DNA of 24,532 bases from NCBI GenBank assembly GCA_046708665.1, contig JBKKDE010000044.1, positions 1-24,532 on the forward strand, read 5' to 3'. Below are positions 16,528 through 24,404 of this stretch, piece after piece. The translations under genes were made by a program, and so were the position numbers. The notes under the pieces were generated by a model. It worked only from the letters and a program-made list of their open reading frames with translations, did no database searches and was not told where the DNA came from. Position 1 is the stretch's first letter; each line of letters opens with the position of its first letter. This stretch comes from Candidatus Zixiibacteriota bacterium (GTDB lineage: Bacteria; Zixibacteria; MSB-5A5; WJJR01).

Positions 16528-18858
16528 ATGAACACCGTATCGAGCGCCGATACCCGTATCCGTTGGATCCCTGCTTCCATCGCACGCCACCCCGCACTAC
16601 TTGCCGCCGCCTGCATTTGCGTCGGAGTGTTCCTCGGCGATGCCATCGACATGAGTTCTGGGGCAATACTCGTTGCAACCGTGGTGCTGGGTATCGTCGG
16701 CCTTGTGGCTTCCCAATCCGTGATTCTCACGACACGGGTGGTTGGGGTGATTGCCGTCTGTGGGGCAATCGTCGCACTCGGGGCATGGCGCATTACCGTA
16801 ACGAACTCCGGTCGACCATCGCCATCACTGACCGAGCTGATCGCGTCAGGACGCCAAGTCAACATATTTGCACGCGTCGATGGTGTCCCTTATCAGAAGT
16901 CGAGCGGCTGGCGGCTTCCTCTTGAGTTACTGTCAGTCAAGAGCCCAAGCGGTAATCAGTCAATCGCTGGCCGCGTGCTCTTGACCTCGATAGCATCCCT
17001 GCACGGACTACAATTCGGCGATTACATACGCTTCGACGGTCGCGTTTTCGCGGCTTCGATCCAACGCAACCTCGGCGGGTTCGACTACGCCGAGTACCTG
17101 CACCGCCAAGGGTTCGACGCCACAGTCCGTCCGCAGTCGCCATTGTTAAAATGGCCACAGGACATGCACTGGTCGCTGTACAACATTGCCGACCCCGTCA
17201 GGCAATGGATTCGCGAAACATTTGCAAGAAGTCTGGACGATGACCCGCAGGCGCTACTCGTCGGGCTTCTACTTGGAGACACCGACCGGCTCCCCAAGCC
17301 GGTGTATGACGCGTTTCGAGAATCGGGTACGTCGCACCTGCTTGCGGTTTCGGGAGCCAATGTGTGGCTCGTTGTGGGGATGATTCTCCTGCCGATGTAT
17401 GCGTTTTCAGTTCCACGCTGGCCACGAACGATTATCGCGCTGATCGTCATCGTCTTCTTCAGTTTTCTCACACGCAATGAGCCCTCCGTGGTGAGAGCCT
17501 CTCTCATGGTTGGGCTGATTTTGGCGGGACGACTGATGTGGCGGCCGGTTGCTCCGTTAAACGCCGTGGGCGCGGCCGCGTTAATTATTCTGCTGCTGTC
17601 ACCGGCTCAACTCTTCCGACCCGGCTTTCAGTTGTCATTTGCTGCAGTGATTGGAATCATCATAGCTGTGAGACGTGTTGAGCCGAAGCTGCGGGGGATC
17701 TGGCGCACGCGCTTGGTCTACACGGTCGTTTTGTTCCTTGTCGCGTCGTTGGCTGCAACTGTTGCGACAGCCCCGATCTCAGCTTGGCATTTTGGAACAG
17801 TTCCTGTCGCGGGGCTTGTCTCAAATCTGCTAATGGTTCCTCTGGCCGGCATGACCGCGCACCTCGGCCTGTTGCTCTTGCCCCTCCAGGCTGCAACTTC
17901 GACAGGTTCGAGAGCACTTGCCGTGGCCATCGAATACTTGCTGCGGTTGTCCACGCACATCGCCCAACTGTTCGCTGATATGTCGTGGGCTACGCTTTCC
18001 TGGCCATCGCCCTCACTGTTGATTCTCGGTCACTTCGTATTGGTGATTTGCTTGATTCTCAACTGGCGTCATCGGTACAGTTGGTTCAGGCCTTTCGTCT
18101 ACTATGTCTGCATCTCGCTCACGGTGTTCGCAGCGGCTCGACTTAGCAACCCAACTTCGCCCGTCGCATCAATATCGCTCCTGGACACAGGTCGGCAACG
18201 AGTAGCAGTGCTCTCAACCAGCGCCGGGATGGCGGCTGGGACAATTGACGATCCGGGATTGGACGACGAGATCGACCAGTGGATAGTTCAGCCATTCCTG
18301 CGACACAAAACGGGTGAGCCCAAATTGGATGCTTGGACATCATGGCGACGGCTAGCCGATTCTCCCACGTTTCAGACGTACGGTTCCGATATCCGGCCAC
18401 AAATATGGAAGCGGTTCTACACTCACGAAGATCTCGACACTCTTGGCCGACCTCGAGTTTGGGCCGATTTATGGCCGACGGATTCAGCCGACATTCTTAT
18501 GATTCGTGATATTCCGACGATGCCGCTGCCGTTACTCCTCGCTGAGACGGGTACCACTCTACGCTCGCCAACCATAATTATCCCCTCGCAGGCAAAAGTC
18601 GGCTGGGTCCGTGAAGTGCTTGATAGATTACGTCCTACGAGCGTAGTCCTGTATGGTCGGTCGCGATTCGGAGAGGACCCAGAAGAGACACTCGCATTCT
18701 GGCGGCTACGCTTTCCTGAGGTTGAGTTCTATTCGTCCGCTGAATACGGCGGGATCACTCTCGATATCTTGCCGGGCCAGGCGACTCTTACCCACACTGT
18801 CTCAAGCCCGCCGAAATCCTATCGAATAAAGGTCTCGCACAATTCCCCGATAAAGTGA
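16528..18858 (+). CDS. comEC: ComEC/Rec2 DNA uptake channel with degenerate C-terminal metallo-beta-lactamase-like domain
   Basis: N-terminal TMs plus an OB-like region (LQFGDYIRFDG, GGFDYAEYL). Competence-domain motifs GTSHLLAVSGANV, PSVVRASLM, GFQLSFAAV. Confidence 0.9.
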   Translation: MNTVSSADTRIRWIPASIARHPALLAAACICVGVFLGDAIDMSSGAILVATVVLGIVGLVASQSVILTTRVVGVIAVCGAIVALGAWRITVTNSGRPSPSLTELIASGRQVNIFARVDGVPYQKSSGWRLPLELLSVKSPSGNQSIAGRVLLTSIASLHGLQFGDYIRFDGRVFAASIQRNLGGFDYAEYLHRQGFDATVRPQSPLLKWPQDMHWSLYNIADPVRQWIRETFARSLDDDPQALLVGLLLGDTDRLPKPVYDAFRESGTSHLLAVSGANVWLVVGMILLPMYAFSVPRWPRTIIALIVIVFFSFLTRNEPSVVRASLMVGLILAGRLMWRPVAPLNAVGAAALIILLLSPAQLFRPGFQLSFAAVIGIIIAVRRVEPKLRGIWRTRLVYTVVLFLVASLAATVATAPISAWHFGTVPVAGLVSNLLMVPLAGMTAHLGLLLLPLQAATSTGSRALAVAIEYLLRLSTHIAQLFADMSWATLSWPSPSLLILGHFVLVICLILNWRHRYSWFRPFVYYVCISLTVFAAARLSNPTSPVASISLLDTGRQRVAVLSTSAGMAAGTIDDPGLDDEIDQWIVQPFLRHKTGEPKLDAWTSWRRLADSPTFQTYGSDIRPQIWKRFYTHEDLDTLGRPRVWADLWPTDSADILMIRDIPTMPLPLLLAETGTTLRSPTIIIPSQAKVGWVREVLDRLRPTSVVLYGRSRFGEDPEETLAFWRLRFPEVEFYSSAEYGGITLDILPGQATLTHTVSSPPKSYRIKVSHNSPIK

Positions 18859-18911
18859 AAGGCCCCCGGAAGATAAGGCGGGTCAGGGAATCTCTTGGGC
18901 AGGAGAGCCGC

Positions 18912-20087
18912 ATGAGCTTTGCTGGGAATCTAAAAACGGTCGTTTTTGGCGATGTGCTGCAATTGATCTCGACCGGTCGCCGCACCGGGGCGCTGGTTCT
19001 CAATCGTCCCCATCGCGGCAAGAAAATTTACTTTCGAACGGGTGACATCATCGCTGCCTCGTCGGAGCCATCGACTGATGAGGAACGTCTGGGGCAAGTA
19101 TTGCTCCGCAAAGGGATGATCAGTGTCGAGGATCTGGAAAAGGCATTGAAGCGTCAAAAATCGACCGGACGACGCCTGGGTCAGATACTTGTCGAGCTCG
19201 GTACAATGAGCAAGGAAAGCATCACCGATGCACTGCGGCTTCAGGTCGAAGAGGTCGTCTACGGTGTATTTGGATGGAACGACGGCGACTTCCAGTTCGC
19301 AGAAGGGGAGAAGCCTGAGGCCTCCCAAATCTTGGTAGAACTGAACACGCTGTCTGTCATGATGGAAGGTGCCCGGCGCTTCGATGAGTACTCAGGAATC
19401 GCAAGCACTCTGCCAAACGAAGAGACAGTGCTGCGTTTTGTGCCTTCCCCGCATCTCAAGGATCCGGAGATTGTTCTGTCCGCCGAGGATATCGATGTCC
19501 TTTCTGGCGTCAATGGCCAGCGTTCCGTTGCTGAAGTCGTCGCCACGTCCTCGTATGGCGAGTACGCTGCCTCAAAGTCTCTTCATAAGCTCCTGACATC
19601 CCATCTCATCGAGCCCTGTCCGGACGTTGCCGTTGCGGTAAAACAGCGCGCCGATGAGGATGAACTGATCGCCTTCATTTTCAAGCTTCACGCCCATGCC
19701 TTGCTGACCATTCATGCCACGCTCAAAGAATACCTCGGACGCGCTGGAGATCGCCTCTACTTCCACATTCCCGCTCTATGCTACGATGACCCGTGGGATT
19801 TGGCTGCTCCGTTGATCGATGCCGACGGTGCGCGCTCGCAAGAGCTGTTTCGTGAACGCGTCTCGCGGATTCCGGGCCCAATCCGTCTCCACCGCTCAGT
19901 CGCTACGGCCCATGCCCTTGTTCATGAAGGGATGCGGACGGTCCGCGACACCCTGGGCGACACCGTCGCTCACAATGTGGCTGAGTCAACCAAACGTGAA
20001 CTCGCTGTGCTTCTGGCACAGAAGCGCGCGCTGGGAGACAAATACGACGTTCACAACGAATTCTTCGCAATTCTCAGGGGGAGATAG
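18912..20087 (+). CDS. DUF4388/PATAN-like protein with internal MshEN motif and wHTH-like segment
   Basis: AGGAG RBS and ATG 18912. DUF4388-type MSFAGNLKTVVFGDVLQLIS..RRTGAL and FGWNDGDFQF...MMEGARRFDE flank a tandem MshEN motif. LSGVNGQRSVAEV is wHTH-like. Confidence 0.8.
   Translation: MSFAGNLKTVVFGDVLQLISTGRRTGALVLNRPHRGKKIYFRTGDIIAASSEPSTDEERLGQVLLRKGMISVEDLEKALKRQKSTGRRLGQILVELGTMSKESITDALRLQVEEVVYGVFGWNDGDFQFAEGEKPEASQILVELNTLSVMMEGARRFDEYSGIASTLPNEETVLRFVPSPHLKDPEIVLSAEDIDVLSGVNGQRSVAEVVATSSYGEYAASKSLHKLLTSHLIEPCPDVAVAVKQRADEDELIAFIFKLHAHALLTIHATLKEYLGRAGDRLYFHIPALCYDDPWDLAAPLIDADGARSQELFRERVSRIPGPIRLHRSVATAHALVHEGMRTVRDTLGDTVAHNVAESTKRELAVLLAQKRALGDKYDVHNEFFAILRGR
19086..19244 (+). 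repeat. Tandem MshEN c-di-GMP-binding motif (2 x 24 aa, 5-aa linker)
   Basis: RLGQVLLRKGMISVEDLEKALKRQ-KSTGR-RLGQILVELGTMSKESITDALRLQ matches RLGxxLxxxGxxxxxxLxxxLxxQ twice with the canonical spacing. Confidence 0.88.
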
Positions 20088-20090
20088 TAC

Positions 20091-20480
20091 ATGAAATCGA
20101 TTCGATACATGCTCATGGTCTGCCTGGCCATTGTGTTCAGCGCAGCGACGGCGTTGGCGGATTCGCCGGCGACAACCACTTCTGAAAGCTCGTCGTTTCC
20201 GCCTGGTACTTTACTGCTTCAGGCCGTGGCCCTGCTCATCATCCTTGCATGTGTGCTTGTGGCATTCAAATTCTACACATCGATCAAGGGCGGTCGTGTT
20301 GGCCAAGGATGGATGTGGCTGTCCTGTGGACTGGTAGTATTTGCTGGTGCGCAACTGCTGCTCTTCGGCGGGCAGCTCGGGGTCCTGCCTCTTCTTATCA
20401 TCTGGGTCGATGTATTAAAAGTTGTGTCGCTCCTGCTGTTCTTCGTTGGCATCAACCAACTTCGCAAGATCATGGCCTGA
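20091..20480 (+). CDS. Small membrane protein (signal peptide plus about 3 TM helices), unknown function
   Basis: GGGGAG RBS, 3 bp after the previous stop. Signal peptide ending ALA|D, then three hydrophobic segments with a KGGRVGQGW loop. Confidence 0.75.
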   Translation: MKSIRYMLMVCLAIVFSAATALADSPATTTSESSSFPPGTLLLQAVALLIILACVLVAFKFYTSIKGGRVGQGWMWLSCGLVVFAGAQLLLFGGQLGVLPLLIIWVDVLKVVSLLLFFVGINQLRKIMA

Positions 20481-20714
20481 TGTACTCGGTCTGCATCCGT
20501 GCCGGGATTATTCCTCGTCCCGGCCATGGGATTTCTCCCATACCGACAATTCCAATCTCGGCCTCCGAAGACGGTTCCACGTGTGACCGTGCTGTGAGTC
20601 GGTGTTAAGACAACCGCCCTGTAGGTCGATATTAATAATTGTTCCAGGCACATAACCTCGCAGGGCGCTCAGCGCGGGGCATCATGTCGGACTGCACCTA
20701 AAATGAGGGCGATC

Positions 20715-21602
20715 ATGCTTAGCGTGGCGCAATTGGACGAACGCATCGAGAAGTGTCTGGCGATACTCGCCGACAACCCGCATTCACAAGTCTTCGCGGC
20801 ACTCGCGGATACATACCGCAAGCGTGGTGAGTTCGGACGCGCGTTCGCCGTTTGCAAGAGTGGGCTCAAGCACCATCCCGATTATGCACCCGCGCACATC
20901 GTGATGGCCAAGCTGTATCTGCATCAGGGCATGTTCCAAGACGCACTGAACTCGCTCAAGCATGCTGAGGCGCAGGATGGCGTTACACGAGCATCGGAAT
21001 TCCTGGAGGCTGAGACTCTCATCGGCGTGCACGACTTTGATGCCGCGCACGCGCTAATCGAAAGGCTCCGCGCCACCGATCGGAACAACCCAGACGTGCT
21101 TGAATTGCAAGCAAAACTCAAGGCGTCGCGGGTGGTCTCGCCGAAGCCAACAAGCGTCGACGACAGAGCACCAGGAGCGACAGATATCGAGCGAGCCACT
21201 GTGCCGGAGCCGGCGGACGCCGTAGAGTACGTTGACTGGACGATGTGGGCACTCGAGATAGCAAAGCTGCCGCATGTTCAGAAGGCCTTTGCAGTGGAAC
21301 TCAGCGACAAAGGAACAACTCCGTTCTCAGTGCTCGCAGAAGCTGGTCCTGGGCACGATGCCGCGGATACGGTCAGCATTTGCGTCGCGCTCTTTGCGTC
21401 ACTCGATTCCCAATGCCGGGCCAAAGGCATCGGCATCGTTGAAGAACTGCGCATTGAGCGTCCGGACGGCGAAATCTGGTGCCATCGTTCCAGCGGACGC
21501 CTCGTAGGATTTTCAGGTGGACACGGTCTCTCATACGGCGCGCTTCGCCAGAAGGCATTGGACGGTGCCGCGCGGGTCAACAGTTACGAAATGAGTCAGT
21601 GA
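20715..21602 (+). CDS. TPR protein with C-terminal degenerate Roadblock/LC7-like domain
   Basis: TPR-type helices FAALADTYRKRGEFGRAFAVCKSGLKHHPDYAPAHIVMAKLY. The C-terminal EIAKLPHVQKAFAV...GIVEELRIERPDGEIW...SYGALR follows the Roadblock secondary-structure pattern. ATG 20715 (GAGG RBS) or 20703. Confidence 0.7.
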   Translation: MLSVAQLDERIEKCLAILADNPHSQVFAALADTYRKRGEFGRAFAVCKSGLKHHPDYAPAHIVMAKLYLHQGMFQDALNSLKHAEAQDGVTRASEFLEAETLIGVHDFDAAHALIERLRATDRNNPDVLELQAKLKASRVVSPKPTSVDDRAPGATDIERATVPEPADAVEYVDWTMWALEIAKLPHVQKAFAVELSDKGTTPFSVLAEAGPGHDAADTVSICVALFASLDSQCRAKGIGIVEELRIERPDGEIWCHRSSGRLVGFSGGHGLSYGALRQKALDGAARVNSYEMSQ

Positions 21603-21609
21603 GGACGCC

Positions 21610-22566
21610 ATGACAGGGACGATTTCGCGAAAGACATCGTATACGCCAATTGTTCTGCGCCTGGCGATTTACTCCGCGCTGTTGGTCTTGGTACCTCTCG
21701 TGCTGTACCCGAGGGGGTTCGGATTCCCTGCGTTGGATCTCAATCCCGCGATCGGACTCTTGGAATGGGCCTTCTACGTTGCCGTGCTCAGTCTGTCCGC
21801 GTCACGGCTCCCCTTCTCAACCCGTGTAGTCGCCGCAGGCTTCACCGTGCTCTTCCGCTTCACGATCGGGGCTATTGCTGGTTGGCTTGTCGGATTTGCA
21901 CATGGCGTGCCACAGTCGGAGACTGTTGTTGGTATGATGTGGTCGTATCCTATGGCCTTGATCCCCCACGTGCTCTTTGCCGCGGTGATTACGAGCCCCT
22001 TATGGGAAAACCTGATGTCGACACAACCGTCGCGTCAGTCGCCCCGTGCAACGGGCCGTACCAAATTCGTGTCTCCGGCGCTGTCGCCATCGACAGTGCG
22101 CACCAATTCTCACAACGCCACGGCATCGCGTGTGGCCTCCGTTGCTGGCGCACTGAATCAAGAGCCGTCATTCGATGATGCAGTGTCTTATATCGGTGAG
22201 TACACCGGCGTTCGTTTGTGCTGGATCGTGGACCGCGATGGTCTTCCCATCGCTGTGTGGCAACGCCAAATGTATACCGGAGATGCCGACTTCTGGGCTC
22301 CCGTTTCAGTCGAAATGATCGATTTCCATAGACAGCGTCTGTCGACCGGGGGTGACGTTTGCCAACCCGATCGGCTCGAAGTGCGCACCAATCAAGGACG
22401 GCTGGTGGTGGAATCGGTTCGTGACGTGTGGCTCGGCGTGCTAACAGATCCCGACGCTGATGAGTTGATCAGCGTACGAATCACGCGCGCACGGGAAATG
22501 ATTGCGAAACATTTGCAAGCGGAGGGCGGACTGACCATAGCCGCCGGGGAGGTTCAATATGTTTAA
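21610..22566 (+). CDS. Membrane protein (about 4 TM) fused to a C-terminal Roadblock/LC7 domain
   Basis: Four hydrophobic segments in the first ~135 aa, then an S/T/P/R linker. From ~22168: GVRLCWIVDRDGLPIA...RLEVRTNQGRLVV...WLGVLTD, which is Roadblock-like. Confidence 0.75.
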   Translation: MTGTISRKTSYTPIVLRLAIYSALLVLVPLVLYPRGFGFPALDLNPAIGLLEWAFYVAVLSLSASRLPFSTRVVAAGFTVLFRFTIGAIAGWLVGFAHGVPQSETVVGMMWSYPMALIPHVLFAAVITSPLWENLMSTQPSRQSPRATGRTKFVSPALSPSTVRTNSHNATASRVASVAGALNQEPSFDDAVSYIGEYTGVRLCWIVDRDGLPIAVWQRQMYTGDADFWAPVSVEMIDFHRQRLSTGGDVCQPDRLEVRTNQGRLVVESVRDVWLGVLTDPDADELISVRITRAREMIAKHLQAEGGLTIAAGEVQYV

Positions 22567-22897
22567 GGAACTGGCTCAACTGAACAGGACCACAGGCGTG
22601 ACAGGCAGCATGCTTGTCGGACACGACGGAATCGTGATTGCAGCGGATCTCGACGAGAAAACTGACGACGACACTCTGGGAGCGTTGGCGTCTTCGATCG
22701 CGGCAACCGTGCGTCGGTCGATGACGGAACTCGGCGCTCATGAATTCGCGCAGATTACCGTCGAAGCGGACAATCAGAAAATCTTCCTGACCGATGCAGG
22801 TATCGGAACGCTGGTCGTCACGACCGAGCCCCGTGTAAACATCGGCCTCGTCCGTCTTGAGATTCGCAACACCATTGGCGCGTTCGCGCGCGCTTGA
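22559..22897 (+). CDS. Stand-alone Roadblock/LC7 protein (MglB/MglC-like)
   Basis: GVTGSMLVGHDGIVIA, LGALASSI, QITVEADNQKIFL, NIGLVRL. GGAGG RBS; 8-nt overlap with the upstream gene. Confidence 0.9.
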   Translation: MFKELAQLNRTTGVTGSMLVGHDGIVIAADLDEKTDDDTLGALASSIAATVRRSMTELGAHEFAQITVEADNQKIFLTDAGIGTLVVTTEPRVNIGLVRLEIRNTIGAFARA

Positions 22898-22937: not shown

Positions 22938-23915
22938 ATGGTTTCGATTAACTACGCCTTCCGCGAAATAAGCTGCAAGATCGTCTACTATGGTCCCGGC
23001 CTGTCCGGAAAGACGACGAACCTGCAGTACGTGCACGACCGCGTTCCCGCGAAGTCGCGCGGCGACCTCATCAGTCTCGCGACCGAGGCCGACCGTACTC
23101 TGTATTTCGACTTTCTGCCGATCCACGTAGGAGACATCGGGGGATTCTCGACCAAGTTCCAGCTCTACACAGTCCCTGGTCAGGTGTTCTACAACGCGAC
23201 GCGCAAGCTGGTTTTGCGCGGCGTGGATGGGATCGTCTTCGTTGCCGATTCACAGTTGGCCAAGATGGATGAAAATATTGAGTCGCTCGCGAACATGTAT
23301 GAAAATCTACGCGAAAACGACATCGATGTGCAAGCCATGCCGTTGGTGTTGCAGTACAACAAACGCGATCTGCCCGACATCGCATCAATTGAAGAACTCG
23401 AGAAGACGATCAATCCCGACGGCCGTCCCATTGTGGAGGCGAGTGCCGTCAAAGGCGTTGGTGTTTTCGATACGATGAAGCGAATTACCAAGCTCGTACT
23501 GGAAGACACAAAACGCAAAACATCCGGGCAACAGCCGTCGACTCCGACCGCGACCAAACCGACGACTCCGTCGGTGCCGATCGACGGCATGCTGACGTCA
23601 TCGGGCCCGGTGTCCGAGTTGCGGCAGTCAACAGCCGCACGCGCGGAGGACGGATGGAACACGGACCGCCATGGCGCGGGAGCCGCTGCGGTCGCGGTCG
23701 TTGAACCGGCAGCCGCATCAAAATCCACACGTGGGCCCATTGGCGTGTCAGCAGAAAGTTCACCGAGTTCAGAAGCCAGGATAGCAGGAACGGCTCACTC
23801 GACAACGCGCAACGATAATGCGGCGTCGGTTGTAACGGCCCAAAGAAGTACACGAATTCGTCGTCGTCAACGATCACTGTTCGATCGCCTCTTTGGCTGG
23901 CTGTTCGGACGTTAG
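22938..23915 (+). CDS. mglA: MglA-family small Ras-like GTPase with long C-terminal extension
   Basis: INYAFREISCKIVYYGPGLSGKTTNL (G1), DRTLYFDFLP (intrinsic Arg finger), TVPGQVFY (catalytic Gln), NKRD (G4). AAGGAG RBS and ATG 22938. 325 aa versus ~195 aa for M. xanthus MglA. Confidence 0.93.
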   Translation: MVSINYAFREISCKIVYYGPGLSGKTTNLQYVHDRVPAKSRGDLISLATEADRTLYFDFLPIHVGDIGGFSTKFQLYTVPGQVFYNATRKLVLRGVDGIVFVADSQLAKMDENIESLANMYENLRENDIDVQAMPLVLQYNKRDLPDIASIEELEKTINPDGRPIVEASAVKGVGVFDTMKRITKLVLEDTKRKTSGQQPSTPTATKPTTPSVPIDGMLTSSGPVSELRQSTAARAEDGWNTDRHGAGAAAVAVVEPAAASKSTRGPIGVSAESSPSSEARIAGTAHSTTRNDNAASVVTAQRSTRIRRRQRSLFDRLFGWLFGR

Positions 23916-23927
23916 AGGAGGTCTTGG

Positions 23928-24404
23928 ATGTCGTCAGGAGCTTATGTTTTATATGAAGATCAGATTGACCGCATCAACACAGCGCTCTTGCGCCTGTTGA
24001 AAAAGGCGGAAGCAAAGTGTGCCATCCTGGCGGATAAGGACGGGCACTTGATCACGCGCCAGGGATTCACCCAGTCACTGGATACAACGGCGTTGGCAGC
24101 GTTGCTCGCAGGCAGCTTTGCCTCCACCCGCGAGATCGCGCGGTTGGTTGGTGAGCCGGAATTCTCGGTCCTTTTTCACCAGGGAGTCCGCGATCACATT
24201 CACATCTGCCTGGTTGGAGAGCGTTGCATCCTGGCCATCGTGTTCGATGACCGAACGACGATCGGCATGGTGCGACTCTATGCCAAGGAGACCGCTGATC
24301 GACTGAAGGAGCTAACAACACCGGCGGCCGACGGCCGGGCTGACCTGTCGGACGATTTCTCGACCAGCGCCGGGGAGAAGATCGACAGCATGTTTAAGGA
24401 GTAG
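23928..24404 (+). CDS. mglB: MglB (Roadblock-family GAP for MglA)
   Basis: Closely resembles M. xanthus MglB from memory: LYEDQIDRIN, AILADKDGHLI, LDTTALAALLAG, LFHQG, IVFDDRTTIGMVRL, C-terminal IDSMFKE. AGGAGG RBS. Confidence 0.92.
   Translation: MSSGAYVLYEDQIDRINTALLRLLKKAEAKCAILADKDGHLITRQGFTQSLDTTALAALLAGSFASTREIARLVGEPEFSVLFHQGVRDHIHICLVGERCILAIVFDDRTTIGMVRLYAKETADRLKELTTPAADGRADLSDDFSTSAGEKIDSMFKE

Follow-up and report, generated by a model that had tools for sequence, protein, structure and literature searches.

To our knowledge, small GTPases have no partners older than Roadblock proteins, and those studied in bacteria are soluble. In eukaryotes, Roadblock dimers become a signaling platform through fixation to a membrane, as in Ragulator.

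MglB may combine GAP and exchange properties (PMC13408092), and in Myxococcus a complex of MglB, MglC and RomR determines where MglA can act (PMC10329633). MglC, an additional Roadblock paralog of this MglA polarity module, is an adaptor rather than a GAP, and several Roadblock dimers form a localizing scaffold in the RomR/MglC/MglB assembly (PMC4719450, PMC7949163, PMC10329633); the surfaces by which MglC binds MglB and RomR are its FDI and KRR patches (PMC10329633). Streptomyces conservons (CvnA-D) are membrane-associated G-protein systems in which an MglA-family GTPase is encoded together with a Roadblock protein and a membrane protein (PMC13343842, PMC4316618), and a survey of prokaryotic small GTPases mentions membrane helices for the conservon kinase only (PMC4316618). 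MglA of Bdellovibrio is bound by TPR proteins (PMC3983030), the pilus motor of cyanobacteria is bound by PATAN regulators (bioRxiv 10.1101/2021.06.11.447907), and eukaryotic Rag GTPases dock on membrane Roadblock heterodimers (PMC5680233).

Here, we analyzed a stretch of 24,532 nucleotides from a Candidatus Zixiibacteriota bacterium (the window), which carries a co-directional row of genes for ComEC, a PATAN protein, a 129-aa membrane protein, a TPR protein, an integral-membrane Roadblock protein (hereafter TM-Roadblock), a free Roadblock protein, MglA and MglB. The features discussed below are as follows.

16528-18858, ComEC
18855..20087, + strand, PATAN (DUF4388/PatA_N) protein with an MshEN-type c-di-GMP motif, head of the module
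20091..20480, + strand, small membrane protein of 129 aa with a signal-peptide-like N-terminus and hydrophobic segments
20703..21602, + strand, TPR protein with a degenerate C-terminal Roadblock domain
21601..21605, + strand, Shine-Dalgarno-like GAGGA before the TM-Roadblock start, read directly from the sequence
21610..22566, + strand, TM-Roadblock gene, 318 aa (open reading frame confirmed, with orthologs and purifying selection)
21643..22017, + strand, predicted four-helix transmembrane bundle, residues 12-136, N-in/C-in (hydropathy and AlphaFold2)
22018..22161, + strand, disordered, basic linker rich in Ser, Pro and Arg, residues 137-184 (pLDDT <50, pN 0.46)
22162..22524, + strand, long-form Roadblock/LC7 domain, predicted cytoplasmic, residues 185-305 (AlphaFold2, Foldseek, VIA)
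22546..22552, + strand, GGGGAGG, ribosome-binding site of the free Roadblock gene, within the last TM-Roadblock codons
22559..22566, + strand, 8-nt stop/start overlap ATGTTTAA (TAA at 22564-22566, ATG at 22559)
22559..22897, + strand, free Roadblock protein of 112 aa, predicted heterodimer partner (Pfam Robl_LC7, E 3.6e-15)
22938..23915, + strand, MglA-type GTPase with a long low-complexity tail; likely start ATG at 22938 after GAAGGAG
23928..24404, + strand, true MglB ortholog (E 1.6e-32 to M. xanthus MglB)

Like MglB of M. xanthus and T. thermophilus (PF03259; PDB 6hjm, 6izw, 3t12 and 1j3w), TM-Roadblock has the long-form fold (Z about 16-17), a predicted alpha2/beta3 dimer face and a gene beside that of an MglA GTPase. 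In contrast with MglB, it is membrane-integral by way of a four-helix bundle and a tether, it scores below the Pfam threshold, and it showed no match to MglB in a profile search of PDB sequences or with NCBIfam. A possible assignment of TM-Roadblock as the MglB GAP ortholog was rejected, both because the operon already has a true MglB and because of this lack of a sequence match. MglC is soluble, homodimeric and brought to the pole by RomR, whereas the anchor of TM-Roadblock is built in; its structural match was also weaker (7ct3, Z 12.0, ranking below MglB and LAMTOR2), and no sequence match between the two was seen.

Ragulator (LAMTOR1-5) holds Roadblock heterodimers at a membrane as a platform for small GTPases (PMC5680233), a likeness in which the heterodimer of the present locus is a model, and LAMTOR2 was among the best structural matches of the TM-linked domain (Z 16-17). 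However, the anchor of Ragulator is lipidated LAMTOR1, which is not a Roadblock protein, whereas here the Roadblock protein itself is membrane-integral; moreover, Rag GTPases carry Roadblock domains of their own, whereas MglA has none. We regard this likeness as one of design, with no descent implied. In the conservon, finally, CvnA is a histidine-kinase-like membrane sensor and the CvnB Roadblock protein is soluble, whereas here Roadblock is fused to the membrane part and no kinase is involved.

Domain architecture and membrane topology

The original prediction described about four transmembrane segments, a linker of about 50 residues and a Roadblock-like domain, and both hydropathy and AlphaFold2 agreed with this architecture. 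The transmembrane helices covered residues 12-32, 46-63, 69-98 and 102-137 according to the Kyte-Doolittle profile and two AlphaFold2 models, with a kink at Tyr113 in helix 4, and the N-terminal domain modeled from 69 diverse orthologs reached a pLDDT of 88.6 and a pTM of 0.78. The linker was highly variable in length among orthologs (whole proteins of 293 aa for P0158 and 362 aa for P0157).

The distribution of Lys and Arg was averaged over the 69 orthologs. On the inner side, the mean counts were about 2.4 for the N-side (N-terminal residues and the start of helix 1), 1.0 for loop 2 and 2.1 for the first 13 residues after helix 4, whereas loops 1 and 3 on the outer side had 1.16 and 0.39, respectively, giving totals of about 5.5 inside and 1.55 outside. 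This positive-inside bias, together with the number of helices, favors an N-in/C-in arrangement in which both termini and the Roadblock domain are predicted to be cytoplasmic rather than periplasmic. Consistent with a cytoplasmic partner domain, the free Roadblock protein, MglA and MglB had no export signal.

Within the membrane bundle, Glu52 (helix 2, codon 21763-21765) and Arg83 (helix 3, codon 21856-21858) were invariant in all 69 sequences. Near-invariant positions included Pro34, Tyr56, Tyr113 and two Pro columns at residues 115 and 125, which are Met and Ala in the 318-aa protein itself. Judging from these alignments, the constraint on the bundle exceeds what a passive anchor would need. 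It is possible that Glu52 and Arg83 form an intramembrane ion pair, or that they contact the 129-aa protein, PilC or pilins.

Foldseek on the transmembrane region, which the original prediction had suggested, was run against the PDB and yielded no relative (best E 0.94). Comparison of the bundle alone with Atlas features gave a top value of 0.82, which is at noise level, and the Atlas shape comparison gave only query-normalized TM values <0.4. The best value of a wide VIA search was Z 7.1, against helical bundles of soluble proteins, which does not exceed the noise stated for helical models, and Pfam matches over the 69 members were scattered and single, none of them recurrent. The bundle is without a recognizable relative in these searches, although such a lack of match is no proof of a new fold. 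The suggestion that the transmembrane domain senses an envelope cue found no support, as the outer loops are short (about 13 and 3-8 residues) and no known sensor was matched. Because of these short loops and the lack of a known relative, a role as sensor of an extracytoplasmic or periplasmic ligand is unlikely; an intramembrane role is possible, since Glu52 and Arg83 are invariant.

For the C-terminal domain, AlphaFold2 gave residues 188-305 an alpha-beta-beta-alpha-beta-beta-beta-alpha order. This is the long three-helix form of Roadblock and agrees with the alpha1-beta1-beta2-alpha2-beta3-beta4-beta5(-alpha3) order of the Roadblock/LC7 fold (PF03259). The top Foldseek matches were all of Roadblock type (probability 1.00, TM about 0.8 by target), and VIA-align matched Asgard Roadblock3, LAMTOR2, a Streptomyces Roadblock protein and MglB of both Myxococcus and Thermus over 112-124 residues (Z 15-17.4, rmsd 1.9-3.1 A), so the Roadblock identity proposed at the outset is well matched in structure.

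Sequence comparison was less decisive. Pfam Robl_LC7 gave TM-Roadblock 18.4 bits (E 0.0018), covering residues 196-219 only and below the 23-bit cut-off, and it reached E<=0.01 in 10 of 21 orthologs (best 2e-4). The family profile retrieved chance matches only from PDB sequences (PPAR-alpha, E 0.2) and no solved Roadblock protein, and no ordinary Roadblock protein was among its 150 best listed matches in 1.84 billion representatives. When the C-terminal domain was aligned with the free Roadblock alignment by hhalign, the register was correct but the E value of 0.06 was marginal, and the Roadblock assignment therefore rests on structure.

Gene neighborhood

TM-Roadblock was found two genes upstream of MglA at every locus examined, in line with the genomic association of Roadblock proteins and GTPases. 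Distant members of the family share the order ComEC, PATAN, small membrane protein, TPR, TM-Roadblock, Roadblock, MglA and MglB, followed by genes for PilB(MshEN), PilT, PilC and a PilS-like kinase. The contig of the window stops after MglB; a genome of the same genus continues directly with PilB, PilT, PilC and the PilS-like kinase.

At the head of the module, the longest PATAN frame would begin at GTG 18855 and share its first 4 nt with the end of the ComEC gene (18855-18858). The 129-aa membrane protein, which is without a Pfam family, occupied the same slot in every cluster examined, and its Gly68, Trp74 and Lys126 were invariant in six orthologs; it may be a partner of the four-helix bundle within the membrane. 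The TPR orthologs begin at the Met of codon 5 (20715). Robl_LC7 was found at the TPR C-terminus in 11 of 21 orthologs (best 3.1e-6) and is degenerate in the genus of the window; this domain was absent from the original prediction. With it, the operon has four Roadblock domains per one MglA, and a Pfam Robl_LC7 search over the rest of the assembly, which is 81% complete, gave no further Roadblock match.

The tail of MglA (window 23500-23915) varies in length between orthologs and has a basic-aromatic end, ...LFDRLFGWLFGR; similar ends were seen in divergent MglA orthologs (L045:1888-3279; L048:32-1141 (-)).

Junction between the two Roadblock genes

Upstream, the GAGGA before the TM-Roadblock start overlaps the TGA stop (21600-21602) of the TPR gene. 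Downstream, the 8-nt overlap with the free Roadblock gene was found exactly as claimed. Translational coupling of the two genes had also been proposed, and in agreement with it the stop/start junction was kept across the phylum. At 27 loci of several families in which both genes could be called, the genes overlapped by 8, 17 or 20 nt or lay 2 nt apart (two loci), and a GGAG-type site was embedded in the upstream gene at every one of these loci. One divergent locus (G066) had an 11-nt gap.

The main junction types, with overlaps of 8 and 17 nt, each had their own C-terminal ending (L008-L037). The C-terminal 'E..[YH]V' of TM-Roadblock coincides with the GGAG site and ATG of the next gene (window 22546-22566). 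Because it overlaps these translation signals, its conservation at the protein level is probably imposed by the free Roadblock gene.

Distribution and conservation of the family

A word-indexed search returned 36 relatives, of which the named ones were Zixibacteria MAGs. A wider family profile, which included two more distant members taken via their neighboring genes, matched 198 of the 201 sampled genomes of the phylum and 106 of 108 genera, nearly always with one copy. Among the three unmatched genomes, G066 does carry a divergent version of the gene at the usual place beside Roadblock and MglA (L045:566-1489); the Glu, Arg and Tyr-x-Pro landmarks are retained in its product, and the C-terminus is Roadblock-like. 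In the other two (G053 and G090, each 96% complete), TM-Roadblock, free Roadblock and MglA were all not found with the queries used, and it looks as if the whole module was lost, or was not assembled, together.

An exhaustive profile search of 1.84 billion representative proteins gave 192 clusters at E<=0.001. Nearly all of the 150 best listed matches were 290-356 aa long and aligned end to end, and none of these exceeded 356 aa; short matches look like truncated gene calls. With these mostly full-length clusters and the occurrence in almost all genomes, TM-Roadblock is a closed, phylum-wide, single-copy family. Long open frames that resembled fused forms in G164 and G162 were rejected, as they proved to be separate genes. 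A search for related loci with close alignment found six, and the names given by the submitters included Zixiibacteriota, 'Ignavibacteria' and 'Acidobacteriota'.

In comparison with one ortholog of the same genus, pN was 0.09 for the Roadblock domain, 0.19 for the transmembrane domain and 0.46 for the linker, with a saturated pS of 0.62-0.75. These values indicate a real gene under purifying selection, which is strongest on the Roadblock domain. Divergence was much faster in families f8, f14 and f15, where the profile gave E values of 1e-15 to 1e-29 as against 1e-50 or better in most others, and some genomes of these families had two matches.

Proposed pairing with the free Roadblock protein

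Residues 183-318 of TM-Roadblock (21-row alignment) were modeled together with the free Roadblock protein (30-row alignment). The complex had an ipSAE of 0.67 (0.68, 0.67 and 0.64 in separate runs) versus 0.32 for the best control; the score mark used here was reached by 58 of 80 solved complexes and by 2 of 110 mismatched pairs. The runs agreed in at least 93% of contacts, and the partner had a pLDDT of at least 82. The modeled interface joins alpha2 (228-244) and beta3 (251-263) to alpha2 (43-60) and beta3 (62-73) of the partner, and the beta3 strands are antiparallel (255-260 with 63-69), as in the textbook Roadblock dimer. According to this model, TM-Roadblock most likely pairs with the free Roadblock protein through the canonical alpha2/beta3 interface. 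However, such a pass shows likeness and compatibility rather than binding, because Roadblock dimers have already been solved and resemblance to them may explain the score, and the model does not separate heterodimers from homodimers or from pairing with the TPR Roadblock. Thus, the proposed heterodimer is supported as far as the modeled interface goes, while homodimers are compatible with the same result. Across the phylum, the free Roadblock protein showed 54-61% identity and the TM-linked domain 29-39%, and these unequal rates are a mild argument against an obligate pair.

The most serious alternative is that TM-Roadblock forms a homodimer that serves as a membrane-bound, MglC-like adaptor, that the free Roadblock protein pairs with itself, and that the junction provides co-expression only. 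Most solved bacterial Roadblock proteins are indeed homodimers (MglB, MglC and the Asgard Roadblock entries), the very different rates of the two domains would fit separate dimers, and the complex test cannot tell a cousin from a true partner. On the other hand, the junction is maintained phylum-wide and the heterodimer model scored clearly above its controls, and we consider this alternative unlikely.

Discussion

In our view, the balance tips modestly toward a hetero-Roadblock platform that regulates MglA, or localizes it, for type IV pili and of which TM-Roadblock forms the membrane-fixed half. The N-in/C-in four-helix bundle would hold the cytoplasmic Roadblock domain at the inner membrane by a flexible tether, basic and about 50 residues long. 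TM-Roadblock and the free 112-aa Roadblock protein would be made together via their conserved stop/start junction, and pairing via alpha2/beta3 would give a heterodimeric Roadblock platform anchored to the membrane. This platform would belong to a phylum-wide MglA module with the PATAN/c-di-GMP protein, the TPR-Roadblock protein, MglA and MglB, a module that adjoins pilB-pilT-pilC and in which MglA appears to carry its own membrane-seeking tail, so that switch and platform would both operate in the plane of the membrane. By binding MglA or MglB there, the platform might control the place or the duration of MglA-GTP action on the type IV pilus machine, a design that would be akin to Myxococcus MglC/RomR or to eukaryotic Ragulator. 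The link to MglA is suggested by two observations, the invariant synteny and the shared absence in two unmatched genomes, and the GAP, GEF or landmark activity that had been predicted for the platform is putative.

A more elaborate counterpart of Ragulator can be drawn, in which the TM-Roadblock/Roadblock heterodimer, stacked with TPR-Roadblock and MglB, would hold membrane-tethered MglA at the base of the pilus, and Glu52/Arg83 would read an intramembrane signal for the GTPase switch. Candidate signals would be the pilin pool (via Glu5, a conserved residue of pilins), PilC or the proton-motive force. We regard this extended scheme as speculative and rather improbable.

Two further readings have low probability. 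The partner of TM-Roadblock might instead be the Roadblock domain in the TPR protein encoded upstream; this pairing would tether a TPR effector or adaptor to the membrane and leave the free Roadblock protein to serve MglB or MglA. A gap of 7 nt separates the end of the TPR gene from the TM-Roadblock start (-32 to +27 nt at other loci), about half of the TPR orthologs have a C-terminal Roadblock match, and the rate of this domain is nearer to that of the TM-linked domain; however, the overlap and the embedded ribosome-binding site tie TM-Roadblock to the free Roadblock gene, and the TPR Roadblock is degenerate in the genus of the window, and we regard this pairing as very unlikely. Equally doubtful is a direct action on the pilus machine (PilB/PilT ATPases, PilC platform) rather than on MglA, either as a membrane-bound NTPase regulator, NTPase regulation being a general function proposed for Roadblock proteins (Koonin and Aravind 2000, as cited in PMC4316618), or as an intramembrane pilin sensor: the cluster is contiguous with pilB-pilT-pilC-pilS and the invariant Glu52/Arg83 suggests contact within the membrane, but MglA-type regulators surround the gene, which lies upstream of MglA; the queries for free Roadblock and MglA likewise found no match in the two unmatched genomes; and the fold searches showed no resemblance to PilS-type proteins or to other membrane components of the pilus.

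Returning to the membrane-fixed hetero-Roadblock platform, we found no TM-Roadblock fusion in the titles and abstracts of the retrieved Roadblock-MglA-MglB papers, none is described in PMC4316618, and a search for literature naming both Zixibacteria and MglA found none. TM-Roadblock gives a familiar type of regulator a new architecture, without amounting to a new type of system. All members of the family come from uncultured organisms, and its putative function is read from genomic context.

The present results define a four-helix membrane domain that as yet has no name and in which one Glu/Arg pair is invariant, and the proposed pairing offers a small, testable two-protein interaction. Finally, this membrane-built Roadblock protein belongs to the single-copy core of the phylum, appears to be co-translated with another Roadblock protein and has the pilus motor and an apparently membrane-seeking MglA as genomic neighbors; this arrangement suggests that, in some bacteria, a Ras-like polarity switch may operate on the surface of the membrane.
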